DNA of 63,665 nucleotides, the filler included, from Reticulomyxa filosa (taxonomy: Eukaryota; Protista; Foraminifera), in the NCBI GenBank assembly GCA_000512085.1. It is 15 parts of 15 records of this genome, joined end to end, with 100 filler letters (N's around TTAATTAATTAA, not from the genome) between each part and the next. Parts side by side here need not be neighbours in the genome. Positions count along the whole stretch, not along the records: positions 10,292 to 18,912 come from ASPP01019011.1; positions 19,013 to 27,608 come from ASPP01007360.1; positions 27,709 to 32,193 come from ASPP01028083.1; positions 32,294 to 33,695 come from ASPP01029487.1; positions 33,796 to 38,490 come from ASPP01000783.1; positions 38,591 to 41,784 come from ASPP01020468.1; positions 41,885 to 43,898 come from ASPP01005489.1; positions 43,999 to 46,876 come from ASPP01041542.1; 7 more parts are not named here. One strand, given 5' to 3'. A program made the translations under genes and the position numbers. Numbering within the stretch: position 1 is the stretch's first letter; the number at the start of each line of letters is the position of its first letter. The notes under the pieces are model-generated. The model was given only the letters and a program-made list of their open reading frames with translations, ran no database searches and was not told where the DNA came from. Below, piece by piece: positions 10,920 through 45,986 of the stretch.

Positions 10920-11354
10920 TCTTTTAATAATATTATTGTATTTGATTTAAATACATTTCAATTTATTAAACATGATACTTTACCAACTAATGATATATAT
11001 TTTATCATTGCTTTGTATCAAATCCAGAAAATAAAATGATGAAAACAAATTGATGACATTTCAAAATACTTTACTAAATGAAAAAATTATATACACATTA
11101 TTGGAGGAAAAGATAATAAAAGGACAATATTATTGACTCACAGAAGACTAAAGTGCGTGTATGGGATCCTTCACAGTTGGTAATTATTTGTTTATTTATT
11201 TTGATTGTATGAAACTGATTGACAAATAATAAATAATAATGAACAGTCAAAAAATGAAATGAAATGTATTATCGAATATTGGACTCAAACTTTAAAGATA
11301 AAATTAGGATGGGTCGATGATTTTAATCAAATTATTGTGAAATACAGTAGATAA
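10920..11354 (+). pseudogene. Internally deleted Kelch-propeller pseudogene retaining its intron and an intact terminal module exon (11247-11354)
   Basis: Fragments YHCFVSNPEN, MTFQNTL and HIIGGKDNKRTILLTHRRLK/VRVWDPSQL|gtaatt are colinear with 12056-13298 but lack the intervening segments. Last exon is SKNEMKCIIEYWTQTLKIKLGWVDDFNQIIVKYSR*. Confidence 0.75.
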
Positions 11355-12055
11355 TTGGATACACACATTTTTTTAATGTATATTATAGTTATTATATTTT
11401 GAAAAGTGAAGTTGATTTTTTTCACAAATAAACCATCAAAGAAGTATTTGGAAGTGCATAATAAATAATAATCTGTGATTTCTTGGTTTACATAAGGACA
11501 GCTTTAAAATCATTTATTATCTACTTTAGAATAATCTCGCTAATAGCAGCAATATGCACTTAGATTTAAATAAATTACTCTGTTTACACATAATAACTTT
11601 GTTTGCAGAAGTTATCAATTTGCTAGTATCCCATGCAAACAGAAATTTAAAAACTCCAAAAAAAATCGTGTGACTCTGAAAAAAGTTCTCACAAGTCTTT
11701 TTTGGAGGGAAACTAACTCTGCATTGCTTTACAGAAGCGAAATGCTATAAATTGATCAAGAATGTGTTTGCGCTCACATTTGAAATAAAATAGCATAAAT
11801 TATTAATAATCTGTATAATTTAAATATGACTTTACAATCGAATGTGGAAGATGTGATAATAAACTAAATTGGAGTTGCAATTTATAGCATTAAAAATGGT
11901 CTTGTCGGCTATAATTATATCATTATGTAACACAATTAATATCGTAATCTTGTAATAATTTTTGTTTTCCTAGCCAAACATTTTTTAAAAAAAGGATATC
12001 TTGTTTCATATCCTTCCTCCCTTTTTACTATTCATAGTTCCTCAACATTAACAAC

Positions 12056-13298
12056 ATGAGCAACCAAACCTTTCAATCTTTGAAGGAGTTGCCTACCCCA
12101 CTTTTTCTACCTCAATGTGTGCTACACAAACACGAAATCCTCATTTGCGGAGATTACAAACGAAGTGCTTGCTATTCTTATCATATACTTAAAAACGAAT
12201 ACAAATTTGTCTGTAATTATCCAAGACATGTCAAATTAGAAGGACACTGTGTAGTGAAACTGATAGATAACAACAATAACAACAACGAAGACAGTAATCA
12301 AGTTACTTTGTTGTCTTTTGGTGGAGCATTTAAACATACATTAGTGATGAAATATGTAAGCGTTTGGAGTAATACATTAGATATATCAAACAAATCAAAT
12401 GAATTGAACAATGACAATCAATGGACTCCTTTCACAGACAATCACAATAACCCAATTATCATTGGAAGATCTCGAGATGAATATAATGGAGTGCGTGCAG
12501 TGATTAGTGGAAGCAACAATCATTTATTATTTATCACTTATCTTAAAAATAATATAAGTGTATTTGATTTAAATATATTTCAGTTTATTAGACATGATAG
12601 ATTACCAACTGATAATTGGATATGGGATCATTGCTTTGTATCAAATCCAAAAAATAGACAAGGACAAGGAATAATAAAAACAAATCAAGAACAAAATGAA
12701 CAAAATTGTCAAATGCTATTATTTTGTAAAAATGTAGGATTATCAATTAAATATGATAAAGATAAAAACATTTTTCAATTTCGTAAACTATTTGTTTGTG
12801 ATAATATTGCACCATTCAGCAATTATGCATATATGTGTATCAATGATGTCATCTTGTTCTTTGGTGGATGGAATGGTAGAGTTGATGGTATTGATGTTTC
12901 GACATCAGTACATAAGTATTCAATTCGAGAAAACAAATGGATGACATTTAAAAACACTTTACCCATTCCACTGTTTAATTGTGTTGCAATATTGAGTAAA
13001 GAAGACAATTATTTACACATCGTTGGAGGAGTAAATAATAAAAGGAAAGCATTACTAACTCACATGAGAACTAAAATGCGTATATGGGATGTTTCACATT
13101 TGGTAATGATTTGTTTATTTATTTATTGTGATGAAATATAAATATATTTTATTGTATAATACTGATTGACAAATAATAAATAATAAACAGTCAAAATATG
13201 AAATAAAATTTATTGTTGAATACTGGGTTCGAACTTTAAAGATAAAATTAGGATGGATCGATAACTTTGATCAAATTATTATAAAATACAGTATATGA
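12056..13298 (+). CDS. Kelch-like beta-propeller protein with C-terminal 'LGWIDDF' module
   Basis: Exon 12056-13102 has Kelch blades (ILFFGGW...VHKYSIRENKW...LPIPLFNCVAI...LHIVGG). Intron 13103-13190. Exon 13191-13298 is SKYEIKFIVEYWVRTLKIKLGWIDNFDQIIIKYSI*. Confidence 0.85.
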
Positions 13299-13993
13299 AG
13301 TAAATTTTAAAGAAGCACAATTAAGGCATCTGTTAATCAAATTATAAATTATATCTTTCTTAAGTATTTTCAAAATATACCAAGCTAAAATACATTCTTT
13401 CTTTTTTTTTCCTTGAGATAAGCTTTGATGATGCAAAGATGACGAAAAAAGACTCTTTTCAATTTTTTTTTTTAAGATCACGAAGGGTCAACAAAAAAAT
13501 GGAATATAAACTTTGTAATGTAGAACTATTTGGAAAATCAATATTCTATTGCAATCATGCGCATTAAACAGATATATTGTTGTATTTGCTTTGCAATCAA
13601 GTTGCCTTTTATTACAATGTTGATTTAATCATCTTTTTTTTTCTTCAAAGTCAAATCAAAAATGAAATGGGTTTTGCAAGCATCAAAATAATGCATATGC
13701 AACATCGTTTAATGAATGAAAACAATTAAGGTGGTGAAGAATATATTAATTTCCAAAAATACAACAAGCCAGGAATAATCAGAGGATAAGTCATTTCATT
13801 AGCCCCTTTCCATCAAATTGGTCAATTTTGTCACCCCCTTAAAAAATTGAACAAAGTTACATTCATAGAATATCTGTTGAAATTTGTTATTTGTTTTAGT
13901 TATTAAACTTTAAAAAGTTAATAATCATAAGACAGGCACAGCTAATCTTTTTAAAAAATATTTACAAAAATCAATAAAGATAAGTTTCAAACT

Positions 13994-15271
13994 TTATTTC
14001 TTTCTACTATATTTGAATATAATTTGATCAAAATCATCAATCCATCCTAATTTAATCTTTAAATTTCGAATCCAATATTGAATAATAAATTTTTTTCATT
14101 TTTTGCCTGTTCATTATTTTTTTATTTGTTAATCAGTTTCATGTAATATATAAAATGTTATTACAAAAAATAAATAAATAAATAATTACCAATTGTGAAG
14201 CATCCCATACATGCACTTTTGTTTTCATGTGAATTGATACTATTGTCTTTTCGTCACTTTGTCCCCCAAGAATGTGTATATTAGTGTCATCTTCACTCAG
14301 TATTGCAACACAATTTTTCAATGGACTAGATAAAGTGCTCTGAAATGTAATCCATTTGCTTTCTTGAATCAAATATTTATGCACTAATCCTGAATAAACA
14401 TGATTCCCATAACCACCAAAGAATAAGACGATATCATTTATACACACATATGCGTAATAATTAAGTGATGCAATATCACCTCGAACAGATAGTTCATTAA
14501 ATTGAAAAACGTTTTTATCTTCATTGTATTCAATCGATAATCCTGTCTTTTTATAAAATAACAGCATTTCATAATTTTTTTTCTTTTTTCTTTATTTATT
14601 TTCATCATTTCTTGGCCATTTTCTAATCTTGATACAAAGCAATGATAAGATATTGAAGTAAATGATGAAATTGGTAAAGTATGATGTTTAATAAATTGAA
14701 ATGTATTTAAATCAAATACACTAATATTATTTCTCCAATAAGTGATAAATAACAAATTATTGCTGCCTCCACCAATCACTGCACGTACTCCATCATAATC
14801 ATCTTCATCTCTCCCAATGATAATTGGATGATTGTTATTATTTGTGAAAGGAACCCATTGATTGTAATTGTTTGATTTATTTAATTTATTCATTTCATTG
14901 TCATCACCCCAAATACTTACATATTTCATTATCAATGTGTGTTTCTCCATTCCACCGAAAGACAGCAAAGTGATTTGATTTCTGTCTTTATTATTATTTA
15001 CCAGTTTCACTACACAGTGTCCTTCTAAATAAACATCATTTGGATATTCACAGATAAATTTGTATTTGTTTTTGAGTGTATCATAAGAATAACAATCTCT
15101 TTGATCATAACCCCCACAAATGAGGATTTCATGTTTGTGTGGCACACATTGAGATCCTGTAAGCGAAGTGGGCAAATCCTTCAAAGCTTGAAAAGGAGTT
15201 AAAGTAATAATATGTTGACCTTGTTCAATTTGTTCAGCTTTTCTTGCAAAAGATTTAATTCGATTAGCCAT
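13994..15271 (-). CDS. Kelch-like propeller paralog with C-terminal module; two 1-nt frameshifts in A-runs (sequencing error or young pseudogene)
   Basis: ORFs 15271-14438 and 14567-14139 are consecutive halves of a paralog of 12056-13298. Intron 14189-14107; module exon 14106-13994. Shifts at ~14575 and ~14092. Confidence 0.8.
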
Positions 15272-15439
15272 GTTGTTAATGTTGCTGAATTTTTTTTAAG
15301 TAGTTAAACTTTTTTTAAAAAAGGGACGACAACAATTATTTTTAAAAAATTTCTTGTAATACAAAAAAACAGCCTTTTTTTTTGTTAATGAAACAATTTG
15401 AGTACACATTAATATCGCGTAATTTTTATTTGTTTATAG

Positions 15440-15660
15440 TCAAACAGAAACAATTGCAGTAAAGAATATCGAAATTGGTGGTAACTCAAATGTGATATGT
15501 TCCGATCAGAAGATAATACTATTCGATTTTGAGATATTCGAGCAGATAATTTTTTGTGATTAAAGGAGGACATAAAATAATGTGTCTTAAATTCTATAAT
15601 TAAAAAATGATAGAAAGGGAATTAATGATAGTGGATAAGATATTAATTGTGTTTTAGTTC
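15440..15660 (+). pseudogene. Decayed WD40 gene fragment
   Basis: AATATCGAAATTGGTGGTAACTCAAATGTGATATGTTC...GATAATACTATTCGATTTTGAGATATTCG is a degenerate copy of ~17000-17085 (NIEIGDNSNVICSGSWDNTIHFWD) with a stop and indels. Confidence 0.6.
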
Positions 15661-15877
15661 AAAGGCTCCACTTTATAAAATGAAACGATTTTCCTTCCCT
15701 AATTTATAGTTTTGTATTGATCTATTTTAAAAAAATAAAACGAATGAATTGCTAAGTCCAATCAAAGTATTTTTAACAAACCCTTTCATTGATCTTAAAA
15801 AAAAAAAGTTGAACAATTTTTTTCTTACATCATCTAATCTAATTCAATCTCAAAAAAAAAATTTAAAAGTGGAAACA

Positions 15878-17239
15878 ATGACCACTTCAACACAGCTTGA
15901 ATTGGTAACCTTTTTTAATCTTTAGCTTCATGTTTTACTGTATTGTTATCTGTGAGTTGTGTTTGCAATTGAATCAGTTAAAAGAAGAAGATGTTCAAAA
16001 AATTATTCAATATTGGATAAGAATATTAAAAATAAAATCAGGATGGATTCACGACTTTGATAAGACTGTTGTCAATTACGTTATGTTTTTGTATTTTTTA
16101 CAATGACAATCAAAATAATCTAAATTTATAATTATAACTACTATTCACAGATAATTACTTTCTTCATATTTGACGCGTTTCAGTCATCATCCAAATTACT
16201 CAAAACATTCACTGGGCATACCAACACTGTGTGGAGTATTGATTACGCGACGTTTGATGATGGTCAATTTATTTGTTCTGGATCATCAGATAATACAGTT
16301 TGTGTGTGGGATATAGAATCCAACAAACAAATTCGACAATTCAATGAATATTCAGGTGGTGTATATTGTGTGAAATTTTCACAATATCATTATCATAACA
16401 AGCATCGCAATGTCATTTGTTCTTCATCAGGCAATACTGTTTATTTTTGGGATATCAAAGATAGTCGACAATTACAAATATTTGATGAACATGCTGCCAA
16501 CATAATTGGAATTGAGTTCTCGTCATTTAATAGTGGTAGATATTTATGCTCTGGATCTAGTGACAATACAATTCGTTTATGGGATGTTGAAACATCCAAA
16601 TCATTACATGTGTTCAATGGACATGAAAGTGGTGTTTGGTGTGTGGATATTTCACCATTACAAAGTAATAACAACAATGATAATAATAAAAGTAATAGTA
16701 TTGGTTTGATTGGTGGTAATGGATATACTATTTGTTCTGGATCATGGGATAAAACCATTCGAATATGGGATATTGAAACAACCAAACAATTGGTCATTTT
16801 CAAAGGACATAAAGAAGCAGTGAGTAGCGTAAAATATGGACTAAATGAATTAGGAATTAATGGTGGTTCAAATACAATATTATCTGGATCAGATGATTGT
16901 AGTGTTTGTTTGTGGGATATTCGATCTGGTCAACAAATTCGAGTGTTCAGTGAGCATGAAAATATTATAAGCTGTGTTGAATATTCACCATTTGTAGTAA
17001 GTAATATTGAAATTGGTGACAATTCAAATGTAATATGTTCTGGATCATGGGACAATACAATTCATTTTTGGGATATGCGATCAACTAAAAATAAATTGCA
17101 TGTAATTAATGGAAATAAAGAAGATAAAGGAATAATATGTCTTAAATTTGTATCATTGAAAAAGAAAAACAACAAAGTAGCAAATGGTGCTAATTTATAT
17201 TACGGTTCAAAAAATGGTTATATTCGTATTTGGGGATGA
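15878..17239 (+). CDS. WD40-repeat protein with N-terminal 'GWIHDF' module
   Basis: Exons 15878-15904 (MTTSTQLEL), 15978-16079 (LKEEDVQKIIQYWIRILKIKSGWIHDFDKTVVNY) and 16151-17239 (about 7 GH...WD repeats). All introns GT-AG, phase 0. Confidence 0.9.
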
Positions 17240-17838
17240 AATCAAAGGAATTTGTAAACAATAAGGCTTGGTGTTTGTTTTGAATGAATTTGTTTTGTTT
17301 ACTATTTTCTAATTAATTTATGTTATAGATTGTAATATTGTTTGATTGATGACTCTTTTTTTTTGCGGTCGGTTGTATATTTTAAATTGCTTTGAAGAAA
17401 ATTTTATGTTTTTCAAATGTCAAAATAAAAACAAAATATTATTTTAATACATTTCAATTCATAAAATATCTTTTTGTCCAATTTCATGAAGATTTAAAAA
17501 AATCTATTCAAAAACTTGCCTCGAAATATCCTTTCATTTCTTATGAGTTTGCATTTTGACATATCCTAAAGAGAAATTTAAGATTTCACTGACTGTAAAC
17601 ATGTAATGTTCTCAATTTTGAATAAAGAAATCATATGTTGTTCAATATTAGATAGTAATTTACTTTGTTCTAGATCAGATGTTGCGTTCGTGTTTGGGAA
17701 TAAACATATGTTGTGATTTTAATTTGCTTTATAAGTTGGAGTGTTAGTTTGATAAGCATTTCTTTACTTTTAAAAAAATAAAATAGACAAGCATAATCTG
17801 CAAAAACATCAAAGTAGATTTACAAATTTCAAACTTGT

Positions 17839-18883
17839 TTATTCCCAAATTCGAATTGTACAGTCTCTAGAACCCGAAGCAATTGTATTACCATTTTGAG
17901 AAACATTTACACATATTACAGAGCTAGAATGTCCTTTCAATTTTTGTATTTTTTTCCCTGATTTTACATTCCACAATCGAATTGTGTTATCACTTGAACA
18001 CGATACAATTGTTTGGCCACCTGGAAAATATTGTACGTCATTCACAAAGTTTGAATGTCCTTTTAATGTTTTCCATTCTAGTCCTGTTTTAATGTTCCAT
18101 ATTCGAATTGTCTTATCTAATGAACAGGATACAATAAATTTGCCATCTGGAGAAAATTTTGCACGCATTACACTATCAAAATGTCCTTCCAATTGTTTCA
18201 ATATTTCACCAGATTCCACATTCCACAAACAAATTGTTTTATCATTTGATGATGATACAATCATTTTACCATCTGGTGAAAATTGTGAACTCAATACACC
18301 TTTTGAATGTCCTAATAATTGTTTTATTTCAATTCCAGATTGTACATCCCATAATTGTATTGTTTTATCTAGAAAACCTGACACAATATATTTTCCATCT
18401 GGAGAAAAATCTACATCCCATATCCTATTGGAATATCTTTCAAATTTCATTATTTCAGTTTCTGTATTAATATCCCAAAATCGAATTGTCCCATCGCCTG
18501 AACATGAAACAACAGTATTTTCATCTGGTGAAAATGTTGCAACAAAAACTTTGTCAGTATGTCCTATAAAACTATGAAGCTGTTTTCCCGATGTAACATC
18601 CCATATTCGAACAGTATTGTCATATGATGCCGAAACAATCTTGCGACCATCTGCAGAAAATCTTATGCTACTCACGGTACTATCATGTCCATATAAAATC
18701 ATTGATAATTCAAAATCTCTTACCTGTTTGAAAATGTAAATTATATCATAAAAATCATTTATGTTTAAAAAAGCACCACTTAACATGTTTCATAATAATT
18801 TTATTAAAATCATCAATCCATCCTAATTTTATTTTTAAAATTCGAATCCAGTGTTGAACAACAAGTTTTATTTCTTTTTTTGG
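17839..18883 (-). CDS. 7-bladed WD40 protein with highly regular repeats, preceded by the module exon; 5'-truncated
   Basis: Exon 18883-18785 is PKKEIKLVVQHWIRILKIKLGWIDDFNKIIMKH. Intron 18784-18724. Exon 18723-17839 has seven 42-aa GH..V....FSPDGK.IVS.S.D.TIR.W units. Confidence 0.9.
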
Positions 18884-19361
18884 CTGTTGATTGTTTCATA
18901 TAATAAAATATANNNNNNNNNNNNNNNNNNNNNNNNNNNNNNNNNNNNNNNNNNNNTTAATTAATTAANNNNNNNNNNNNNNNNNNNNNNNNNNNNNNNN
19001 NNNNNNNNNNNNAAAAAAAAAAAAGGTGTTGTGGAATTTTTGTTAATTTTTCAATTAACGGACTTGTTTCAAGAATGATGTACTTTGGGATGAGTTCATC
19101 CTTAAATCTCTCAAAACTTGTTAAGGGATCGTCACCCTTCAAAAAAAAAAAGATCATTATTTAACTTCTTACACAGTTTGCTTTGCACCTCGCGTATTAT
19201 TCTAGTGCCAAAGACTCAATACTGGACTTGTATTTTTTTGAAAGTATAGGCACAGGGAGGAAAAAAATACTTTTGTTCCCCTCTTTTTCTTCTTGGCGGG
19301 AAAAAAAAAAATCCCTTAGATTCAGTCGGACGCAAAATTTCTTTGAAAAGGTATTCTCGAA

Positions 19362-22164
19362 ATGAGCGACGATAAGAAAAAAAAAGCAAAAGAAGGAGAA
19401 AATGTGAAAATCTATGCTCGTGTGCGCCAGCTGATGCCATGGGAGCCTAGAAAAGTTAGTCTTCAGATCAAAGGCAACAAAATCAGGAACCACACGAACA
19501 AAACAACAAACGAATACTCGTTTCAAAATGTCTTTCCTATTGAATGGACAAATGAGGATATGTTCAAAGTCATGGTAGAGCCAATGATTGACAATGTATT
19601 GAAAGGATTCAACGCAATTTTGATTGCCTACGGACAAACAGGTTTTATTTTCTTTCTTTCAAAAAAAAAAAAAGAAAGAATTTTTTTTTTTGAAACTAGA
19701 TAAAGTCCAATGAATAAATAAAAAAATGTAAACAACGAACAGGGAGTGGCAAGACATTTTCGATGTTAGGAAAGCCTCATTTGAACGTAGTTGGTTTGCT
19801 GCCTTACATGTTAAAAAGAGTAGTGGAATCGCCGGGGGTGACTAGTGTCGATTTGACAGCAGTGGAAGCGTTTGGACATCACGTCGCTCGTATTGAACTG
19901 TTTGACTTATTTGACCCGGACAACCAAACCCCTAACTGGGCCGAAAAAAAGGGAAACACCGGTTTGGAACCCGAGAAAGCGACCAGCGTTCCTATCAAAG
20001 ATATGGATGACGCTTATAAAAAAATTGAAGTTTGGCCCCTTTTTTATTTATTTATTTTTATTCAAAAAAAAAATTTAATACGTAAACATGTTACAAATTG
20101 GTAAATTGTTCATTGTTTGCGAGAAGGGGGGGGGGGACACGGATCAATGACGATAAGAATTTGGAATGTTAATAATATATAATAGTACGCTCATCGTGGA
20201 TCACATTTTGCCCCGACAGGTAAAAATCCAGAATCGTCACGAGGTCATGTGACATTCATTGCATCGATAACGCAACAAAGCAACGATCACACCGAATTGA
20301 CAAGCTATTTTGCAATGGTTGACTGTGCCGGTAGTGAGGGTGAAAGTGCTTTCACTCCTGACTTTATTGCTGCTGTTGACAAAACGACCTTAATGGCCAG
20401 GCGATTGGAAGCTGGTTGTATCAACACCGGTTTGTCGCAATTGCAAATCGTTTTCAATGAGTTGCGTGTCAAAGGTAAACATTTTTTTCTTTCTTTTTAA
20501 AATAATTCAACCTTTTTTTTTTTTTTCAAAAAACAAAAAAAAAAAATTCCTTTTCTATTTTTCTTTTTAAATTTGTAAAAAAAAAAAATTTTGCAATCAA
20601 AACAACTTTTCTTATAACACACATCAATTTTTATGTATACGTTGATGAAGAGGGGGAAAAAAAGGGGGAGGAAGAAAAAATGTGTAGCGGCGGAAAGAAA
20701 TAATAATTGTAAAAAAACTACATATAACGTACTAAATCAAGCTAAAAGATGAAACACTTGTGTTCATAGGCCAATTGTCAGAAATGAGGGGTAATGGATT
20801 GCGACGAGTGTTGCATCCGTACATTAACACTCGAACGTATTTGTCAGTATTGTTTACGTTTTCTCCTTCGATCAACAATTCCAAAGCAACGGAATCTACA
20901 TTGAAGTTTGCCGTGACTGCAGGCATGGTGAAGGTGCAACCAGTCAAAGTGGAGCTTTCCGTCAATATGGAACAGTTGGTGCAACAACTGCGACGACATA
21001 TTGAAGAAAATGTTTTGTAATCTTTGCTTTGTGTCTTTTCTGACTTTGTTACAGTAAGAGAAGGAGAATCTTTTTACGCCTCGATCTCACTTATGTATTT
21101 TATAATATTTTTGTATATGAATGTATATGATATATTCTAATATGTATTCGTTATCAAATTAAAGTTGACGGAAGAGAGTTTTTTTTTTTTTTTCGCCGTT
21201 TTCAAATATAAAAAAATGGCGTATGTTTAATCGACTAACAAATATCATAAACTGCTTATATTTGGTGTGTATTGTTGCCAGGATAAATTAATCGAAGAAC
21301 AAAATGACAAAATTATGAATTTACGGGCCGACTTGGAAAAATTGTTGCAAGATGCGATGACGGCGGGAGATTTGCCCGAAGACTTTGTCTTGGAAACAGA
21401 AGCAGAATTAGAAAGTGCCGAAATAGTTGAGGATGACGCTGAGCAAGGCGTACATCGCGTGTATTCGTCAACATTAGCAAAAGAAATGACCAAGCGTCAA
21501 GAAAAAACACACTCCACCTTGCCAACCAAGTTATTGTCACAATTGAAAGAATTGGACGAGGACGAAGAAGAGGAAGAGATTACATTTGATGAGAAAATGT
21601 ACGTGTTTGAAGGAGAATCAGGAAAGCTTTCACAAAAAGATGTGGAAAAAGAAATGCAAGCTGCATTGGACCGAATGCAAAAAACCAACCGAGGAGACGA
21701 AATGATCAAAAAGGCAGTTAGCGTGGATCAAAATAAATCCAATGTCGACAAAACGAAAGACGCAATGCAACAATTGGCGGGCACTTTGGCTGCCGCGACA
21801 TTTGATCCTTCGGCTGCTACAGGTTTAGTCATTGTTCAATGTTTATTTTTTTTCCCTCCTTCTTCTCTCTCTTCTTTCCAAAAAGACATGCTTTGGCTGG
21901 TTGTTATCATCGCGAATAGACCCAGAAGAAGAACCTGCCGTTTTTGACACCGTCGCTGTCAACATGGATTTTTCACGAATGAACAAGCAAGAACTGAAAG
22001 ATGTTTGTGTGGACACATTCGACAAAATAGAAAAAAATAGAGAAGAGCAAACGAAATTGCAAAAGAAACAACAAGCTGTTGTGGGTCACTTAGTTGAAAC
22101 AAATGAATGGCTCTTCAACACTTTGAGTGAAATTTTGAATGACAAAGACGAAAAAAAGAGCTAA
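19362..22164 (+). CDS. Divergent N-terminal kinesin motor protein with coiled-coil stalk and tail
   Basis: VKIYARVR; P-loop AYGQT|GSGKTFSM across intron 19642-19742; switch I NPESSRGH; switch II VDCAGSE; TESTLKFA. About 6 exons. Confidence 0.92.
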
Positions 22165-26484: not shown

Positions 26485-26528
<44 letters not shown>

Positions 26529-27453: not shown

Positions 27454-27488
27454 GTGTGTATTATATTACATTATATAATACATATATA

Positions 27489-29418: not shown

Positions 29419-30059
29419 TTTTTTTACATTATCGCTTTTATTCTATTTATCAAAAATCTTTATTTTGAGGTATAGTATAAGTATATTAATATAATGCATT
29501 GGTATAAAATTTCATTCCTTTGTATTTTTTAAATGTTTTCAATTAGAATTTAAACTCGTCATTACTTTATTTTATTTTATTTTATTTTTTGCTTCTTTCG
29601 TTGGCATTGCACCGACCTTTTCAAGAACGTGTCATAATGTATTCCTTTACTACATATACTTTTATCAATGCAATGGTTTTGATCAAATTCATATCTTTCA
29701 ATAAAAAAGATATTTTTCAAATGAAAAAAAGGTTTAAAACTTAATGAGTAAATTAACGTTTGAAAAACTCTAATATCTTTTTACAACGATTGAAAAATCA
29801 AGTAACAATTTTTTGCTTTAAGAAAATCAAAACTATTAAGATAATTTCAAATGAAAAAGAAAACACAGTTACAACCCAAAATCCTCTTAAATAATTGAAT
29901 TTAGTGAATAATCTTTAATTCGCAAAATTGAAAGACTTCCGATTAAAAAATTTGTTATTTTCTGTATTCACTCAAAAGACGAGTCACAGGGTTTTACCAA
30001 AGGCGTCGTCAAGTTTTTTAAAAAAATATCCTTGGTCATCATTTCCAGAAAACGTTCAA

Positions 30060-31478
30060 ATGTCCCAAACGAAACAAGAAGAATTGGCTTTTGAACTGTT
30101 GCCTCCAGAATTGAAGTTGAAAATCTTGGAAAAGCTGAATTTGGTGGATGGAGTGTTGAGTGGGACAGTAGAAGCTCCTCCATTGATGGACTTTTCAATG
30201 CCAACAAAGATTGGGAAAAGCAGTCAGCAGAAAAAGAAAAAAGAGCAAACCATTGACAATGAAGAAAATAATTCAAAAGAGGAGAGAGTGGAAACACACT
30301 CCACAATTATAACAACAATGCATCCAAAAACAACGGAGCCCTCTCCACTGTTGTTTGACAATATAGTATTGAATGCATTACAAGAAAATAAATCAACAAC
30401 AGATAGCAACCTGTGTTTTTCACTGCAAAATGCAGTGAATCTACAAAAACACGGATACGTAGTGATTGATGACTTTATCGACGGAAATTCGCAAATGATA
30501 GTGAATTGTGTAAAGCAAATTGAGTCAATGAAACAAAATGGAGTCCTTAAAAAAGCTGGATTAAATCGTCGCGAAAAGCATATTGCAGATGTCCATATCT
30601 CCGACTGTGGCGTTACAAAACTGAATGGTACGTATCATTGGGATGCTCACTCCAAGCACTACGTACATTCTACCAGTGCAAGTTGTACTCTGGCTCCAAA
30701 TTCGGATCCGGAGTTGAGCCACTTGTTTGGCTCCAAAACTCTTACTTCTCTATCCTCCTCGCACACAACGACAAAACCTATTGATTGGGTTCTGAGCTGT
30801 CAACACGTGGTTTTCTACTACGGAGCCAGTGTTGGAGGAGAAGAACGGAGTGTGTCGAAAGATTTGGAGCCTGTGACAAGTCATTGGCAATGTGTGGCAG
30901 GTATCGAGCCACTCCCAAAGATAACCACTCACTCCAACAAAAAAAATGACGAAAAAGTACAATTCGAAAATGTAACGGATAGCAATAGTGTGTGGCGATC
31001 GGAAGACGTACGAAGTGATCTTCACGCGTGGATGCACAGTGACGATGCTAACATTGCCAAAGACTTGCGCAATGTAATCACTCAAATTGATAAAATCAGA
31101 GTGTGGTTGAACAAACACGTACAGTTTGGATGTCAAGATACGCAAGTACAAGTATCGTGTTACCCTGGCGATGGCAGTCGATATCGAGCTCATTTGGATG
31201 AGGTATACGTAGATGACTCTACAATTCAAAGTATACGTAACAGCGAACAAATATCTGCCAAAAAAACACGGAGGATAACTGCTTTGCTTTATTTGAATGA
31301 ACGATGGAATACAACCGAGTGTGGAGGAGCGGTACGTATTTACTTGAGTGACGGAGTGTATCGAGATATAGAGCCTGTCGCTGGCAGGTTGTTGCTGTTC
31401 AACAGCCAATGGCTGCCACATGAAGTTATGCCAGTCTTCCATCGTGATAGATTCGCTATCACTTTATGGATGTATTAA
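30060..31478 (+). CDS. EGLN/PHD/SM-20-like 2-oxoglutarate Fe(II) prolyl hydroxylase with N-terminal F-box-like motif and a large loop insertion
   Basis: GYVVIDDF, DVRSDLHAWM, SCYPGDGSRYRAHLD (HxD), RRITALLYLNERW, GGAVRIY, IEPVAGRLLLF, PHEVMPV..DRFAITLW (distal His and 2OG-binding Arg). Confidence 0.9.
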   Translation: MSQTKQEELAFELLPPELKLKILEKLNLVDGVLSGTVEAPPLMDFSMPTKIGKSSQQKKKKEQTIDNEENNSKEERVETHSTIITTMHPKTTEPSPLLFDNIVLNALQENKSTTDSNLCFSLQNAVNLQKHGYVVIDDFIDGNSQMIVNCVKQIESMKQNGVLKKAGLNRREKHIADVHISDCGVTKLNGTYHWDAHSKHYVHSTSASCTLAPNSDPELSHLFGSKTLTSLSSSHTTTKPIDWVLSCQHVVFYYGASVGGEERSVSKDLEPVTSHWQCVAGIEPLPKITTHSNKKNDEKVQFENVTDSNSVWRSEDVRSDLHAWMHSDDANIAKDLRNVITQIDKIRVWLNKHVQFGCQDTQVQVSCYPGDGSRYRAHLDEVYVDDSTIQSIRNSEQISAKKTRRITALLYLNERWNTTECGGAVRIYLSDGVYRDIEPVAGRLLLFNSQWLPHEVMPVFHRDRFAITLWMY

Positions 31479-33342: not shown

Positions 33343-33695
33343 TTAGAGTATGTATTTGGATAAATCTTGATCTGCAATGATAGAAGACAATTGTTTGGCA
33401 ATAAAGTCACTGCCAACAGAGATTTTCTCCCCTTTCTTTTCAGGGGCGTCATATGACAGATCTTCAACGATTTTGGAGATGACAGCTCTCAATCTTCGAG
33501 CTCCAATATTTTCCAAATTTTCATTTAATTGTCGACTGTATTTTGCAATGGTGCGAATTGCATCATCAGTGAACTCCAAGTCCACGCCCTCAGCAGCAAA
33601 CAGTGCTTTTTGTTGCTTGATCAAGTTGGACTCTGTTTCGGTCAAAATGCGAACAAAATCAGCTTCAGACAAGGGTTCCAATTCTACTCGAATTG
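33343..33695 (-). CDS. hslU: HslU/ClpY AAA+ ATPase, C-terminal domain; 5'-truncated
   Basis: IRVELEPLSEADFVRILTE, EGVDLEFTDDAI, ENIGARRL and the terminal DLSKYIL HslV-activating tail. Confidence 0.93.
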
Positions 33696-34631: not shown

Positions 34632-36007
34632 ATGTCAGAAAAGACATCCAGCCCACCTTTCACAGTGGATGGGAATCGGTATGATTTCAGCACTTATTGG
34701 GGAAGAACTCGTTATTTTTTGAGTATCTTCAGCCCAATATTACTGCTTACCACCGACGAACAACTTAACAACGCAACCAAACTGTTGGAACAAGTGAGCA
34801 TTTTTCCCCATCCATTTTTTAACTCGTCTTTTCGCTATAAATAATCAAATAAACATTAAAAAACAAAAGTTTAAACGTGGAGAAATAAGTAACAAGAGCC
34901 CAGAAATGAATGAAAAACTTTGGGAAGCAAAAAAAATAAGAGACGCAATAGTCCACCCTCAAACAGGAGAGAAGATATTTGCGCCATTCCGCATGTCAGG
35001 CTTTGTGCCAATGAACCTACCCATTGCGGCTGGCATGCTTATGTCAAAATCACAATTTTGGGGGCTCTTTTGGCAATGGTACAACCAATCTTACAATGGT
35101 CAGATCTCTAAATATGTACACACTTATTATTTTATTCCCCAAAAAAAAATTTGCTCAACATACTTTCCAAAAATTTGTACCATCTTTGGACTCAAAAAAA
35201 GTATTTTTTTCGTCCTTATTTGCTATGTTTAATATTGTTTGTGTATATATTTGTAACATTGCTCTGCTGACGTCAATGTTCCCAAAGTTTGCGTAAATTT
35301 TGCGAATGGAAACAAGTCCAACCCAATGCCTAATTCAAAAATAGCACAAGCTTATGGGATTGCGGTGTCCACGTCGATGGGTGTTTCATATGCATTGAAC
35401 CGATTCCTTGCAAACAGCGGCCATTTGTCAAATACAACACGGACGATATTGAAAGGAACTATTCCTTACACGGCCGTAGCCACTGCTGGAGCTTTAAATG
35501 TAGTCGTCATGCGATTTAATGAAATCCAGCAAGGGGTTGATGTCACCGACAAAGATGGAGTGGTTAAGGGCAGCTCCAAAATCGCTGGAAGAAAAGCTGT
35601 TTTGGAAACCGCATTTAGTCGTGTTATCTTGCCAATTCCTATTTTGCTGTTCCCTGGTGTGGTTATGCGAGTTGAGTCCGTGCTTTTGTTCCCTGATCGT
35701 AAGTCTGTCTCTCGAACAATATTTTTTCCCCTCCTTTTTTTTTTTGTCACATAATCAAAACCATTGTTGAATGTTTGTTACTTCAATACTTCCAATTTGA
35801 CAGAAAATTGAAGCAATGTCGTTTGTCAAAGCAAGACCTTTCTTAGTCACTCCTCTAAACTTATGCGTCATTACCTTCTTTTTGTGGGGTGCGTTACCTG
35901 CCGCCTGTGGACTGTTTCCTCAAAGAGCCAGTATTCACGCCCACCAACTGGAGCCAGAGTTTCAAAACATGGGCGTCGATACGTTCTGGTACAACAGAGG
36001 ATTGTAA
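34632..36007 (+). CDS. SFXN: Sideroflexin (mitochondrial tricarboxylate/serine carrier)
   Basis: RYDFSTYWGR, LWEAKKIRDAIVHPQTGEKIFAPFRMS, FWQWYNQSYN, AVATAGALNVVVMRFNEIQQG and terminal WYNRGL; four exons. Confidence 0.93.
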
Positions 36008-38437: not shown

Positions 38438-38651
38438 CTACCCGAAGACACATTCAAAAGTTCAATACATTTTTTTTTTTAAAAAAAAAANNNNNNNNNN
38501 NNNNNNNNNNNNNNNNNNNNNNNNNNNNNNNNNNTTAATTAATTAANNNNNNNNNNNNNNNNNNNNNNNNNNNNNNNNNNNNNNNNNNNNATATATATAT
38601 ATATGTATACGTATATGTGTAAAATTTTTTTTTCTTCTGTCCCGTGTATAG

Positions 38652-38902: not shown

Positions 38903-39629
38903 TTGTTTTTATTTATTTTGACTTTGTCCTTGTCTTTGTCTTGTTTGTTCCTGATTTGAAAAAGTACTCACATTCATTTTCATTCGAGTAAACGTGCGTG
39001 GTTTTTGTAATATGAAAATAGAACTCAATATAATGTACAAAACCCTTTTCTTTGTTTGTTTGGTTTGCCCTTTCAATATTTTCAGATAAACTGAGTTCTT
39101 GTTTTTTTTCTCGTGTATAACATTCTTCTTTTGAGCCAAAAATAAAAAAAAGATGTTCACTGAGAAATGAAGCTCTTCCAGTAAATCGCTTGAAGTAAAA
39201 GTTTGCAACGCAGCATTAAAACACCCCGATCGCTTGGAAAAAAAAAAAAGAAAGGGAAAATAATAAGTACGTAGCGAGACAGATTCATACAATTAGGGCA
39301 ACAACGCATGCTTTCATCCATTTCTAACAGAGGCAAACTCAAATTGTTGAATACAAACACAAATAACAATTTTTTTTCGCAAACAACTCTTCACAACCGC
39401 AAATGCAAAGAAAAGAAACGCAAGCCAACAAAGCACTAGCGCCTAAAAAAAAGAAAAACAACAAACAAATAAACAAACAAAAGAAGCTCAAAACAAAAAA
39501 AGCCACGTTAATCAACAACACTAACCACAACATAAAAAAACTATCAACGCGGTATTGTTTTTGCGGAAAGAATCTCATCTTCAAACAATTTTCCATTTGC
39601 AGGAACAAAAAAAAAAAAGGTCACTGCTT

Positions 39630-41243
39630 TTAAGAGGATGCACCATCAAGAGCATCTGTTTCGGGTCTTCCTTCAATGCTCAATTCGGTTTGATGTCTTG
39701 TTGATTGCCATCGTTGCATTTGAGTTAAATAATCATCCGAAAAAACTCCTTGTGACACCAAGTGTCCCTGTGGCAACAATGCACGTTTAGCATATATTCA
39801 CACAATTGTGATTGCATAATGAAAAGAACAACACTGCCAAACAAAAATTCAACTAAACAGTAACCCATGGATGTACAGACACTTGAGCAGCAGTTAATCT
39901 TTCTTTGGCGTTTTTAACAAGACATTTTTTAATCAAGTCTTTGGCACCATCGGAAATGCTATCCCATTGAGGAGAAGGAAACGTAAACTTGGCTTTTTTG
40001 ATCGAATGATACAAGTTTTTCATATTATTGCTCGAGTCAAAAAATGGAGGATATCCACACAGTCTACATATACATACATATGTATGTATATATTATGCTA
40101 TATATATATTTTTTTTTTATTAAAAAATATGTTTGTTCGTTGCATACAAAGTGTAAATGATGACTCCAAGTGACCATATATCGACCTCGATTCCATAGGA
40201 CTGATTTTCCAAGACCTCTGGGGCGGCATAGTGCGCAGTTCCACAAGGAGTGGTGCAAGGACCACCGATTGTATTTCCGGCCAACCCGAAATCAATGACT
40301 TTGACAGGACTGTCTTCATCTTTTGTGGAATACATGATGTTGTCAGGTTTCAAATCTCGATGCACAAAGCCTCGTTCGTGCAAATGCTGTAAGCCACTAA
40401 CCACTTGTCGAATGACATGCGAAGCAGCCGTTTCACTAAACGCTTTCAAAGACACTACACGTTCAAACAAATCTCCACCATCACAAAGCTCAACCACCAT
40501 ATATATTCTTTTTGTCGTCTCACACCAGTCTAACAACTTAACTATATTCGGGTGGTTGCACTATTCATATTTTATGTTGTACACAATGTATGTATATGTA
40601 TATACATATACATATGTGTATATACATTATATATACGTATATGTGTATATTAATTTGAATACCCTTTGCAAGACATAAATTTCTTTTTGTAAAGCTCTAA
40701 TGTCAGGTTGAGATTTGCCTTTTTTTTCGATCATTTTTAAAGCAAACAACTTTTTGTCTGACTTTCTTGAGATTTTTCGGATTTTTGAAAACGCCCCTCT
40801 GAGTTCATCATAGACATCCGTTCGTTTTTGGTTCATTTTTTTTTTTTTTTGAGTGTATACCAAAAAAAAATAAGTAACTGTCCAATTTTGCCCGCTTCAA
40901 TCCAGTATTTTTTAAAAAAGTCTCTTTCCGTCAACTCTTTGGCGGAAGACGAGGCCTCTGTTTCCAAGGGCTCAAGCCGAGGACTACCCTCACGGGTCAG
41001 TTGTGTGTCTGGCTGCAAAGAAATTTCAAAAAAAAAAAAAAAAGTTGGTAAATAATTCGCTCACGTATCTTTTATGGAGAAAAAAAAAAAAGACCTGTTC
41101 ACTTTCTCTCGGCTCTGTCGATGATGTATCGATGGATACGGCGGTGTCATTAAGCACGTTGGAGACTGTGTCTGCTTTTGTCTCGTCCACGAAACGCGTC
41201 CATTTCCGTTGCCTTGGCTTTGGCAATGACGCTTTTGATATTA

Positions 41244-41278
<35 letters not shown>

Positions 41279-41617
41279 AAAACAACACGGTCATTTATAA
41301 TTGATATGCACAAACTATATACAATATACACACATATGTATATATAATTTTGTTCTTTTTTTTTTTTTGATTGGGTAAACTTGATGCAATAAACACTGGC
41401 CCAGTTTGAGTACGGATATGTTTGATCGATGCTATTTTTCGATGGCTAAACCGGCCATTTTCCAGCGAGGCACCGTGTTCTGCTACTGCCGTCGCTGTTG
41501 CTGATGGCGAACGAGAAGAAGGATGAAAGAGAGGAGGAGGAGGAGGAAGAGGAGAGGTATTGCCAGTCGATCGACCGGAAGTTCGTTCATGACGGTTTAT
41601 TTTCTCACTTCCATTCC
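39630..41617 (-). CDS. CaMK-group (CaMKI-like) Ser/Thr kinase with N-terminal extension; 5'-truncated
   Basis: KIGQ|GAFSKIRK, FALKMI, HPNIVK, VHRDLKPDN, IDFGLA, CGTAHYAAPE, DIWSLGVI and CGYPPF over several exons. Confidence 0.92.
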
Positions 41618-41750
41618 CTTTTGGTTTTACCAATTCATACACATACAAAAATATTCAATTTTTTTTTTTTTCTTTGGAAAATTGGAAGGAAGGAAGGAAG
41701 GAAAGAAGAGAGGGAAAAAAAAAAAAAAATACAAGATAAACCTCCCCTTT

Positions 41751-41784
<34 letters not shown>

Positions 41785-42445
41785 NNNNNNNNNNNNNNNN
41801 NNNNNNNNNNNNNNNNNNNNNNNNNNNNTTAATTAATTAANNNNNNNNNNNNNNNNNNNNNNNNNNNNNNNNNNNNNNNNNNNNTTATTTCTTTTTTGAA
41901 AAATAACTTGATTTTATGTCACAAAAAGGAATGTTAAGAATAATTTATTTTGATTTTTTTTTTGAAGTAGATTTTTCCAGAAATAAAAAATTGGAGTAGA
42001 AAAACGAGTTTTTTTTTGGTCGGATGGTTGAAAAAAAACTCACCCTTATTCACCGAATAAGATATTTGATTGATATCTTCACTATTAAATGCAAATAAGA
42101 TATTATATCAAATTATATTTTCATAATATATGAAGTACTTTTGCTTTGTGACAGGAAAAATAAAAAATAAAAGTAAACTTATGAAAAATGATAAAAAGTA
42201 CTTGTTAGAATAAAGAGAGTACTTATATCAATCAAAATATTTTTTATTATCCATGTTAAACTATTTAGACAACTGCAATGTCTGATAAACGACAGATATT
42301 TTTAGATTTCACTTTAATGTCAATAATAACATGTTTCATTTTGTGTTATTTGATGACATTTAAAAGAAATGAATTAAAATATAAATTCAAAAAGATCCAA
42401 TCAAGATATTTTGTGGAAAAGGTTAATATTCAAAAATAATGAAAA

Positions 42446-42714
42446 AAGGAGTACATTATCAATCTCCAAAGAAGAGGTTGTAGGGCAAGCCCTGTTATAA
42501 GTATCTGAACGTTAAGGGAACGGAAGAATCCCCAGTAGGTTAACTTCCTCAACAACTTACTCCTTACTTTCTTGCTTTTCTTTTGTTATCTTGTTTTATT
42601 ATTTCAATTTCTTTCGTTTTTCGAAATCAATATTCTCTTCTTAGTAAACACCTCTCGTATTACAGTTAGTGTACCACTACTATCAGCAGACGTCCCAAGG
42701 TGAAAATTGTTTAC
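42446..42714. ncRNA. Candidate structured non-coding element (two fold-back modules)
   Basis: 42446-42565 is closed by AAGGAGTA/TACTCCTT with internal hairpins. 42644-42714 is closed by GTAAACA/TGTTTAC and CACCT/AGGTG. Confidence 0.22.
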
Positions 42715-43388
42715 GGTAATAACACAACAAAAATTGTCAGCAATTTTTTAAGGTTGACTAACTGTTAGTTTTTGAATTAACTTTGTTGTTTGTCTTTGTG
42801 CGAAATAAAGAGATTCTACTTAAAATATTGAGAACATACTTTTCCGTGTGCATTAAGCTGATATTTCAATTGTCTAAGTTCGGACAAAACACTTACATTT
42901 GGGACGGAACGTGCTCTTTTCCGTTGACAGTGTATGTTCATCTGATCAAATAATATGATATAGATAAAATAATAAAACAATTAAAAAGTAGTTCAAATGA
43001 TGATATAATTAGATCACATTCATACGGTACAATTCACATTTGAGAGTAATGCAAACAAAATGTTTTTTTTTCACATGCAATTATTGTTTTGGTAAAAACT
43101 CAAGGTGTAGTTTTTTGCACATCTTATTGTCAAATAAGAACAGCTAACAACAATGAGCGCAATAACCAAAAATTATTTGGACAATATTTTTTAAAATAAA
43201 TGTGAAGAATTTGTTTTGAAAGTGTGACAAAACTTGGTAAAGTTGTATTTGAAATTATGCATTTGATCCTCTTTGAAATCGCCAAAAAATAGTAATTAAT
43301 TTTAATAATTAAGAACGGGATGTAAAAATCTACGAAATGGCAATAAAGCAGAGAAACAACAATGACAACAAAAAAAAAAGTGTAACAC

Positions 43389-43820
43389 TTAGTAATTGTC
43401 AGTTAATTTTTTTAATTCCACGTGTTTACCAAATTTTTTTCTCCAGAGGACATGTTTGCGATCATCCAGGTCAACACCATTGAGATGAGGTAGGTTGGTG
43501 ATTTGATAGGATTGAGTATTTCGGTTAAAGTCTAGCAAAAACACATCATTTTCGGCCCACTTGTCGTTGAGCACAATTTCTTTTTCCAAGCACTCAATGA
43601 TGTGATGGAGTAGATTGTCGATAACAGTTTTTTCTTTGTTGGGTTCGATGTCGTCCAAAGTCACTTTGGAAAGACGACAGACTATTGGCGTGGCTTCATC
43701 ATCGGCGGCAAATCCACGAATGGCATAGTCAAATCCACTGTACTTATATTCCACATATAAATAATCACGTTCGAACGAGAACACAGGGAACTCTGTTGCA
43801 TGGATTTTATCAAAACACAA
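43389..43820 (-). CDS. Terminal exon of an uncharacterised globular protein
   Basis: 143-aa open frame with coding-like GC content and normal amino-acid composition; no family recognised. Confidence 0.45.
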   Translation of the reverse strand: MCFDKIHATEFPVFSFERDYLYVEYKYSGFDYAIRGFAADDEATPIVCRLSKVTLDDIEPNKEKTVIDNLLHHIIECLEKEIVLNDKWAENDVFLLDFNRNTQSYQITNLPHLNGVDLDDRKHVLWRKKFGKHVELKKLTDNY

Positions 43821-44716
43821 GCAAATAAGTTATGCAATAAAATGTATATATACTATTCTGACAATAAAACCAAACAAAAAAAAAAACAAAGATAAAAANN
43901 NNNNNNNNNNNNNNNNNNNNNNNNNNNNNNNNNNNNNNNNNNTTAATTAATTAANNNNNNNNNNNNNNNNNNNNNNNNNNNNNNNNNNNNNNNNNNNNAA
44001 GTCTTTGGAATTTACTTTCTTTGGGCCGTTCGACCAAACAAATAACTGTCGAGTTTGTTTTACAAGCACATTTTTCTTTTGAACGCTATAAAATTAAAAA
44101 GCATCATTCATGCAAACACAAACCGTTGCATTTGGCACTTCTGTTCCGACAATAGAAGACATTATTATTTTTTTATCTTGTTTGATATCCCTATTTGGCA
44201 ATATCTTTCTTTTTTAAACTATTATTTTTTACCTGGAGCAACCGTCTTTTGATACGTAACTAAATTATTACTTAAGATGCATAAATTTTTAAAAACCAGT
44301 GTAAATTGCCAGAAGAAAGTGTTCAAAAAATTAAAATTACTACTGTAGATTTTCTGCTGCTGAAAGAGGTGCACAAAATGTAATACAAGAGATTTCGCTC
44401 TTCTGAGCAATTTAAAACAAAAGAATATTAATTAAATAAAAGAAAAACAAATGACAAGATTCAGCCAAGTGGAAGAGGAAAGACAAATAAAATAATTGAT
44501 ATTATTGAAATGAGTCTGACGGATTATCTTTGGAAAATTAGTATTTAAAATTGTTTACCAGTGAGAGATAGCATTTGAAAAGACATAGTTTTAATTTTAT
44601 TTAAAAACAAGTTTTTTTGGAATAATTTATTGAAATGTAAAATACTTTTTTGTTTTTGCACGCTGTGTCAAACCTTTTTTCAAAAAAAACTTAAAAGATT
44701 CATTAACATTAGCAAA

Positions 44717-45986
44717 ATGGCTAATCGAACTACAATTAAACAACGTCAACATCTTAATACCTCAATTCCCTTTCAAAGGTTGAAAGATTTACCCAATCCA
44801 CTTCGTCAAACTCAATGTATATTACACAAACATGAAATACTCATTTGTGGAAGTTATGAACAAAGAGCTTGTTATTCTTATCATATACTCAAAAACAAAT
44901 ATAAGTTTATATGTGAGTATCCAAGTAATGTTCAATTAGAAGGGCATTGTGTAGTGAGACTAATAGATAACAACAACAATAATCATATCACTTTGCTATC
45001 TTTTGGATCTTCTCTGTTTGGAGAAAATAAACATACATTGGTAATGAAATATGCAAGTATTTGGAGCAATACATTAAACAAATCAAATAACTACAATCAA
45101 TGGGTCCCTTTCACAGACAATCACAATAGTTCGATTATCATTGGAAGGGATAATGACAATTATTGGGGAGTTCGTGCGGTGATTGGTGGAAGCAACAATA
45201 ATTTGTTATTTATTACTTATTATTATAATAATATTAGTGTGTTTAATTTAAATACATTTCAATTTATTAACATGATATTTTAAAAACTAAAAATGAAATA
45301 TGGTATCATTGCTTTGTATCAAATCCAGAAAATGGACAAGGACAAGAAATAATGAAAATAAATGAAAGAAAATAAAAAAAGAAGTTATAAAATGCTGTTG
45401 TTTTGTTTCAAGACAGGATTATCAATTGAATATGATGAAGATAATAACACTTTTCAATTTCATCAACTACCTGTTTGTGACTATATTGCACCATTCAATG
45501 AATATGCATATACGTGTATCAATAGCATCATCTTGTTCTTTGGTGGATTGAGTGGTAATAATGTTCATTCAAAGTCAGTTCACAAATATTCAATTCGAGG
45601 AAACAAATGGATGACATTTCAAAATACTTTACCTAGTAAATTGCATCATTTTGCTGCAATATTGAATGAAGAAGACAATGATATACACTTAATTGGAGGA
45701 GTAGATTATAAAAAAACAACATTATCAACTCACATGAAGACAAAAGTGAGTTTATGGTATCCTTCACATTTGGTAATAATTTGTTTATTTATTATTTATT
45801 TATTTTGATAAAACACAAATAAATTATATTATTATATGAAACTGAGTAACAAATAATAATGGACAGTCAAGAAATGAAATAAAATTTATTATTCAATATT
45901 GGATTCGAACTTTACAAATAAAATTTGGGTGGATATACGATTTTGATAACATTATTATGAAATACAGTAGAATGCAAGAAATTTGA
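44717..45986 (+). pseudogene. Kelch-like propeller paralog with C-terminal module; two frameshifts
   Basis: Colinear with 12056-13298. Shifts at ~45270 (one base missing) and ~45365 (one extra). Intron 45773-45866. Module exon 45867-45986 is SRNEIKFIIQYWIRTLQIKFGWIYDFDNIIMKYSRMQEI*. Confidence 0.8.

Follow-up and report, generated by a model that had tools for sequence, protein, structure and literature searches.

Short helical boxes on Kelch or WD40 propellers are known from several classes of cullin-RING ubiquitin ligase (CRL) receptor. VHL-box and SOCS-box receptors of CRL2 and CRL5 include the Kelch proteins KLHDC1/2/3 and the WD40-SOCS protein WSB1, and Kelch-domain receptors use Elongin B/C with Cul2 or Cul5 (PMC12035522). 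F-box-WD40 and F-box-Kelch proteins serve the Skp1-cullin-F-box (SCF) ligases, and in the expanded F-box genes of nematodes the box is reported to stay conserved while the target domain diversifies (PMC8665587). DCAF (H-box) proteins are the receptors of CRL4-DDB1. Here we describe a module of about 34 residues which occurs six times, beside propellers of the same two types, in a 63,665-nucleotide stretch of DNA (the window) from the foraminiferan Reticulomyxa filosa (assembly GCA_000512085.1).

An earlier note on this DNA had proposed the module as a lineage-specific Skp1/Elongin-C docking element spread by exon shuffling. That it is the constant plug of interchangeable propeller receptors is well supported, and we hold this with considerable confidence. 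Several hundred receptors would have the module as their constant docking box: the choice of target would fall to a variable propeller, Kelch and/or WD40, propellers as a class probably binding many different proteins, while the box would plug each receptor into one common partner, an adaptor of a cullin-RING ubiquitin ligase. Such a ligase is the most likely single reading of the shared machine, with a probability of roughly 0.45, ahead of a calmodulin-type partner, a LisH-like element or another scaffold.

The module and the genes that carry it

The window is a chain of short contigs with 14 spacers within 5142-62148 (e.g. 18913-19012), each made of two N runs around a 12-base spacer; because separate contigs are joined, genes across a spacer need not be true neighbours. 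Reading the window DNA directly, we located all six module copies where the earlier note had placed them, and a six-frame scan with a module profile returned exactly these six, at 56-66 bits, and no seventh, the best score in 20 block-shuffled windows being 1.2 bits. Since the profile (36 columns) was built from sequences including one window copy and close relatives, the size of these scores is partly so by construction; the gap to background is still large.

The copies belong to six genes, four of Kelch type (K1-K4) and two with WD40 (WD1 and WD2). K1 (10926-11179, plus strand; tblastn pieces and DNA alignment) is an internally deleted, frameshifted Kelch remnant, a pseudogene, with copy 1 (11247-11354, plus, 66 bits) as its terminal exon after a phase-0 intron at 11180-11246. 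K2 is a complete two-exon Kelch-module model of 384 residues: an open Kelch-type propeller exon of 349 residues (12056-13102, plus; Kelch_1 above cut-off), a phase-0 intron (13103-13190) and copy 2 as terminal exon (13191-13298, plus). The K3 Kelch exon (14190-15271, minus; open frames, domain scan and tblastn) has a frameshift near 14590 and is followed by a phase-0 intron (14189-14107) and by copy 3 as terminal exon (13994-14106, minus), where a 1-nucleotide deletion in an A run near the start breaks the frame, so that the phase-0 frame stops after 15 codons. K4 (44717-45772, plus; open frames and DNA alignment) has two frameshifts at about 45270-45370, a phase-0 intron (45773-45866) and copy 6 (45867-45986, plus); 180-630 bases behind this module, just 3' of it, lies a decayed W2-type WD40 remnant in three frames (46166-46617, plus; tblastn E 9e-15, profile and blastn pieces). 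WD1 is a complete three-exon model of 405 residues, with a first exon of 9 codons (15878-15904, plus; similar short leaders occur in other family members), a phase-0 intron (15905-15977), copy 4 as a phase 0-0 exon of 102 nucleotides (15978-16079, plus) and a W1-family propeller exon (16151-17239, plus) that holds two WDxR motifs and top-face positions hypervariable across paralogues. Finally, WD2 consists of copy 5 (18785-18883, minus, 99 nucleotides), a phase-0 intron after it (18784-18724) and a W2-family propeller exon of seven regular repeats (17839-18723, minus; domain scan, nearest relatives and tree).

Only K2 and WD1 are complete and open among the six genes, and the frame breaks may be genuine or sequencing errors. 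The WD1 and K2 junctions agree with public gene models, which are predictions and not transcripts, and the K2 junction is identical in public model P0026; the module is present in public gene models and is thus unnamed rather than unannotated. The ten closest relatives of WD2 among the collected proteins are all Kelch-module-WD40 proteins (66-72% identity), and WD2 falls inside their clade with 100% support in the Shimodaira-Hasegawa-like approximate likelihood ratio test (58-row tree, 22 of the W1 rows sampled). WD2 is therefore probably not an independent module-first gene. To judge from these relatives, what is seen is most likely one half of a Kelch-module-WD40 gene that the contig end at 18913 cuts off: copy 5 would be its middle exon, and its Kelch part would lie beyond.

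The exon structure claimed in the earlier note holds in part. An AG acceptor stands directly 5' of every copy (6/6) and a phase-0 upstream intron with a GT donor is visible for five, but copy 3 is frameshifted, and of the intron before the WD2 module only 29 nucleotides can be seen, the N spacer at 18913 marking the end of the contig. The module is the last exon of K1-K3, while in K4 it is trailed by the decayed WD40. A symmetric 0-0 exon, with same-phase introns on both sides, was claimed for two WD40 subfamilies and is found in WD1, whereas WD2 nests with the Kelch-module-WD40 genes; the Kelch copies have an upstream phase-0 intron only. The intactness of the module in pseudogene K1 was likewise seen, as an open 35-codon exon, but is weak evidence alone, copy 3 being a counter-example.

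Two further features of the module borders were observed. In all four Kelch genes a Tyr codon is followed by A-GTA (11346-11352, 13290-13296, 45966-45972 and the corresponding site in copy 3). Relative to the donor of the WD40-linked copies it is shifted by one base, and it may be a donor that has decayed or a phase-1 donor that is not used. The ends of the introns in front of the Kelch-linked modules (11200-11246, 13145-13190, 14107-14150 and 45820-45866) are mutually conserved; they are similar to the 29 bases visible ahead of the WD2 module, not to the WD1 intron.

Beyond the window, the module was found in 342 of 395 proteins collected, most of which had been fetched by module similarity; a library-wide profile search gave 207 representatives at E <=0.001, of which the best 150 were taken. 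Three architectures were seen, module-WD40, Kelch-module and Kelch-module-WD40, the last with the module between Kelch and a W2 propeller: 303 classified copies comprise 159 module-W1, 64 Kelch-module, 27 module-W2, 19 Kelch-module-W2 and 34 with no partner detected. Among the 120 best relatives of the WD1 propeller, picked regardless of the module, 67 carry a full and 3 a partial module, 35 of the others are models starting <=30 residues from the propeller, and 15 have another leader. Kelch and WD40 are the only partner domains seen reliably next to the module, and no RING or other catalytic domain was found reliably attached to it among the collected proteins. Extra upstream or downstream sequence in public gene models mostly looks like intron or flank read-through. 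A TRAF zinc finger (P0186) and a NACHT domain (P0208) scored below Pfam cut-offs in what look like merged gene models and were not counted.

R. filosa is the source of all 120 best matches listed in each of three homologue searches and of 19 of 20 further representatives looked up, the exception, P0191, being rejected as a repeat-driven false positive. Single matches in metagenome, viral and prokaryote contigs covered 15-17 residues in unrelated frames and were put down to chance, as were all nine matches of a viral-contig pattern scan for a proline-containing look-alike motif. In Pfam scans of 5, 25 and 25 module sequences, no family was found at E <=10, with only two single weak unrelated matches, and the module is thus not a domain already characterised there. 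The literature searches brought up no description of it (PMC12475580 only lists R. filosa as an organism), although the R. filosa genome paper and its supplements, which lay outside that search, may describe WD40 and Kelch expansions.

Six W1-type propellers lacking the module (P0311, P0350, P0318, P0286, P0341 and P0349) stand behind long charged leaders that look coiled-coil-like by eye. An upstream RING was not seen in these models, which are partial; they could be a TRAF7-like class.

Folding and constraint of the module

A Kelch-module-WD40 protein was modelled with AlphaFold2 from a 64-row alignment. The model contains a Kelch-type and a WD40 propeller, the latter with a predicted local distance difference test score (pLDDT) above 90, and places the module between the two as a helix (331-348), a loop and a second helix (355-362) at a pLDDT of about 48. 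In the model the module lies outside both propellers and is not a closing strand; together with the three architectures and the R. filosa origin of all named carriers, this upholds the description of a discrete, position-independent and lineage-specific helical module. Folded alone, it came out as one long continuous helix, in contrast to the helix-loop-helix of the full model, so that the two-helix shape is provisional. Columns 7, 9, 10, 11, 14, 15 and 18 are hydrophobic in at least 87% of copies, as might be expected of a helix that a partner buries. As a prediction from the model, the module would consist of two amphipathic helices that lie clear of the propellers and stay poorly ordered as long as no partner is bound.

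Fold and structure-database searches added little on the module. Foldseek with the full model matched the propellers only, while the module-only searches gave, in one case, no match and, in the other, generic coiled coils at Z <5; because the query was a single helix, these are uninformative on the novelty of the fold. Searches of Protein Data Bank (PDB) sequences with the module returned only short weak matches (rBAT, P2X3, designed TPRs, a giant-virus repeat protein and SPATA17), and the ESM Atlas gave no usable feature match, its top structure row being a foraminiferan WD40 cluster and the others unrelated helices under the bar.

The WD2 repeats (17839-18723, minus) are mutually 65-69% identical at DNA level, and the top fold matches include repetitive bacterial and designed propellers; the highly regular WD2 propeller resembles those of NACHT-WD40 receptors.

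To judge from substitution patterns, the module is under purifying selection. By a counting method on small samples, the ratio of nonsynonymous to synonymous substitution rates (dN/dS) was 0.26 over the six window copies; in K2/K3/K4 the module gave 0.17, whereas the 3' part of the Kelch gave 0.70. Eight residues, W14, R16, I20, G23, W24, I25, F28 and Y35, are conserved at 91-98% over 303 copies, and in Kelch-bearing proteins (n=54, a set chosen by module) module identity is 0.689 versus 0.616 for the propeller. These data bear on the possibility that the module is a functionless passenger of gene amplification, which might be suspected from four of the six window genes being broken or cut off and from all named matches coming from one genome. 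The dN/dS of 0.17-0.26 already largely refutes it; near-invariant aromatics across partner classes, in modules only 52-63% identical, and the retention of the module at the very end of Kelch proteins without WD40 also count against it, and we regard it as highly improbable.

The predicted binding face of the W1 propellers varies strongly. Residues R1, R1-2 and D-1 are the usual protein-binding hotspots of WD40 top faces (PMC3419727). At the 17 such positions located by sequence patterns in 67 W1 paralogues, mean entropy is 3.10 bits versus 1.08 over 351 columns, a value reached by 0 of 100000 random column sets, with residues swapping among aromatic, charged and small; entropy here is a measure of diversity and does not in itself indicate positive selection. 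In the Kelch propeller, the columns that vary most lie in loops, several of them behind GG motifs. A conserved module with a diversifying propeller face is, by analogy, the evolutionary pattern of E3 substrate-receptor families.

Trees were used for the history of the fusion. On the module tree (33 columns, FastTree), 266 copies require 5 changes between Kelch and no Kelch, against a mean of 70 for shuffled labels; on the Kelch tree (54 rows, with a long-branch warning on the two deepest), two-part and three-part genes are interleaved, with 10 changes versus 12.6 when shuffled. Diversity is greatest among the module-W2 copies (identity 0.53). Modules cluster by partner, with Kelch and WD40 the only partners reliably seen, so that repeated independent insertion beside unrelated partners is not what is seen, and the module comes to stand both before and after propellers because three-part Kelch-module-WD40 genes link the two architectures. 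Spread by repeated shuffling of a free exon, as claimed in the earlier note, is thus given up as the main mode; a few fusions and losses plus whole-gene duplication would explain the trees better than a roaming exon, and phase-0 borders make partner swaps easy, with no need for one that roams freely. By way of a phase-0 intron, a Kelch exon would have been added in front of a module-WD40 gene; loss of the WD40 would then have given rise, more than once, to Kelch-module genes; and whole genes would then have been mass-duplicated and have decayed, by birth and death. The order of fusion and loss is inferred, given that no tree is rooted and that some of the two-part models could be truncated. 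Seven module-less proteins, six of them with the coiled-coil-like leaders seen by eye, are scattered among module-W1 proteins on the tree, so that the W1 propeller has either swapped its N-terminal partner or been homogenised.

Known docking boxes and the presumed partner of the module

Consensus motifs were scored on 298 module copies (denominators of 292-298 in register). As in VHL-box and SOCS-box receptors, a short helical box sits on Kelch and WD40 propellers: the first helix of the module carries hydrophobics at i, i+4 and i+8, and Cul2-like spacing follows 8 residues on, inside the 8-23 range (PMC3355856). The Cul2 box was tested as hydrophobic-P-XX-hydrophobic-XXX-hydrophobic, and its hydrophobic spacing at columns 24, 28 and 32 is kept in 294-298 of 296-298 copies. 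A BC-like helix by hydrophobic spacing and then a Cul2-like helix are therefore retained, without the diagnostic residues; the module lacks the S/T/P, the C/S/A and both prolines, stands before, after or between propellers, and has no Pfam match. SCF receptors, including the nematode expansions, share with it lineage-specific birth and death as well as constraint on the box beside diversification of the domain that binds targets (PMC8665587). The F-box resemblance itself consists in F-box-like hydrophobic spacing of the second helix (257/298); unlike in an F-box, the proline is missing, the matching helix is the last and not the first, and the Kelch protein chain ends right there. With DCAF receptors the module would share a helix-loop-helix directly before WD40, predicted at low pLDDT in the full model and as one helix when folded alone, and W1 propellers carry WDxR twice (at least two in 87 of 92 near-complete ones); unlike in DCAFs, it also stands after Kelch and between two propellers. 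DDB1-binding helix-loop-helix motifs hold too little sequence signal for a consensus test (PMC3928422, PMC13061254). By sequence, Elongin C would be slightly favoured as adaptor, then DDB1, then Skp1, because a BC-like helix is followed 8 residues later by Cul2-box-like spacing.

A number of points weigh against a cullin-RING partner. The BC box, (S,T,P)LXXX(C,S,A)XXX-hydrophobic (PMC3355856), is found anywhere in 0/298 copies, and in register the S/T/P occurs in 2/292, the L in 2/295 (L or I in 218) and the C/S/A in 1/298, with the last position kept in 265/297. The proline of the Cul2 box and F-box is present in register in 0/298, as is the Cul5 box (LP-hydrophobic-P), LPxP; the full Cul2 pattern occurs anywhere in 2/298, out of register. 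The F-box has no Pfam match in the module, its proline pattern scores 0/298, and in 37/64 Kelch-module proteins the chain ends <=3 residues after the matched module, too soon for any more F-box helices to follow. A survey with one rhizarian sampled reports SOCS boxes to be a holozoan innovation (PMC4327156). WDxR is absent from 13/13 Kelch-module-W2 and 9/11 module-W2 propellers, and the motif is neither necessary nor sufficient, with no direct DDB1 contact (PMC13061254). An IQ pattern from the literature fits the module better than any cullin box, and a constant tag on a variable receptor fits any shared machine, not just a ligase. On the evolutionary side, the dN/dS contrast comes from three genes and 27 codons, two of the genes being frameshifted; in the W1 set, chosen by propeller, the module is no more conserved overall (0.648) than the propeller (0.665); and the order of fusion and loss is only inferred. 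Almost no copy has, in register, the residues that define the BC, Cul2 and Cul5 boxes or the proline of the F-box. The Skp1/Elongin-C assignment of the earlier note is thus not supported, and the module does not belong, on its sequence, with the F-box, VHL-box or SOCS-box proteins.

The IQ pattern raises the possibility that the first helix is a site for calmodulin or an EF-hand light chain, the receptors being calcium-regulated or carried on a stiffened arm. The pattern called IQ unconventional (PMC6245490, Table 6) matches 154/298 copies, 153 of them in register at columns 11-24, against 74 of 89400 shuffled modules (0.0008) and none in 90087 residues outside modules; as all copies share one ancestor, these matches amount to one observation. 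IQ positions 1, 6, 11 and 14 are satisfied in 288, 282, 270 and 294 of 298, the helix is basic and amphipathic (mean net charge of the module +2.3), and the single long helix predicted for the module alone would fit. A profile of divergent modules has a stretch of SPATA17, presumably an IQ protein, as its sole match of solved structure, at E 0.92. Set against this, the IQ glutamine is kept in 185/298 only, the position-7 glycine of the canonical motif in 0/298, and the canonical pattern [FILV]Qxxx[RK]Gxxx[RK]xx[FILVWY] likewise in 0/298; the Pfam IQ model matches none of the module copies scanned, and the pattern was picked after the PDB hint, among many tried. It also leaves unexplained the near-invariant I20, G23, I25, F28 and Y35, as well as the extra conserved second helix. 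We consider a calmodulin-type site unlikely as the function of the module.

The length, two helices and mixed partners of the module also recall LisH, known from LIS1, TBL1, TOPLESS and muskelin, which as a dimerisation or docking motif could pair propellers, giving combinatorial Kelch/WD40 pairs, or attach them to a CTLH-type E3 scaffold. LisH has 33 residues, with a helix-1 interface of L8, N9, L11, I12, Y15 and L16 (PMC9564828), and co-occurs with WD40 and, in muskelin, with Kelch (PMC2518711, PMC9564828). The spacing of L8, L11, I12, Y15 and L16 fits module helix 1 in 261-292 of 295-298 copies and helix 2 at four of five positions in at least 287, but such hydrophobic spacing alone arises in 7% of shuffles, and the conserved N9 is matched on helix 1 in only 2/297. 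A glycine-aromatic pair at the LisH distance occurs in 0/298, Pfam LisH matches none of the module sequences scanned, the loop is longer and no CTLH domain follows. The coiled-coil-like leaders of other W1 propellers would be another oligomerisation device, in keeping with pairing; a homodimer prediction for the module (score 0.02, mark 0.32) counts neither way. A LisH-like role seems to us quite improbable.

No known box fits the module fully, a constant tag with a variable receptor needs only some common partner, and no RING or catalytic domain is reliably attached, the TRAF-zinc-finger and NACHT cases being single and below Pfam cut-offs. The propellers could accordingly dock to machinery other than a ligase, be it a motor, a cytoskeletal adaptor, a membrane or a scaffold for signalling; the module could also be a small self-folding stalk. 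No positive evidence names such a partner, and a stalk packed well onto either propeller is hard to square with the low confidence that the full-protein model gives the module; we judge this reading, too, to have little probability. A cullin-RING ligase remains the reading that we prefer.

Other genes of the window and a candidate recognition system

Several other genes were recognised in the window. Three adjacent long open frames of 343, 357 and 305 residues at 2012-5084 (minus), matching no Pfam family at E 1e-4, are probably exons of one large unknown protein. An AATF/Bfr2 homologue occupies a single frame of 607 residues at 7979-9802 (plus), and a kinesin gene (19347-22164, plus) begins directly after a spacer. 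There follow a 2-oxoglutarate-Fe(II) oxygenase of 519 residues with long insertions (29919-31478, plus), the end of a HslU/Clp-type ATPase (33343-33693, minus; the HslU label being our reading of the sequence) and a sideroflexin (34798-35754, plus). Open frames at 52505-53521 (plus) and 60395-61725 (minus) match no Pfam family at the same threshold, the latter containing repeated beta-rich units that are cold-shock/OB-fold-like by eye.

More tentatively, the module family may represent an intracellular recognition system of R. filosa, in which several hundred receptors would present hypervariable propeller faces to foreign or prey-derived proteins and an undescribed box would connect them to one effector complex, either a cullin ligase that a novel kind of box addresses or a ligase receptor gated by calmodulin, the 34-residue element then combining an IQ site and a docking helix. 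We hold this for a possibility on the doubtful side. Should the cullin-RING reading preferred above be true, the module family would be the largest recognisable receptor family in the foraminiferan genome examined, its box would be a new adaptor-docking box beside the F-box, BC-box, BTB and H-box, and the evolution of a constant box with an arms-race propeller, known from nematodes and plants, would extend to Rhizaria.

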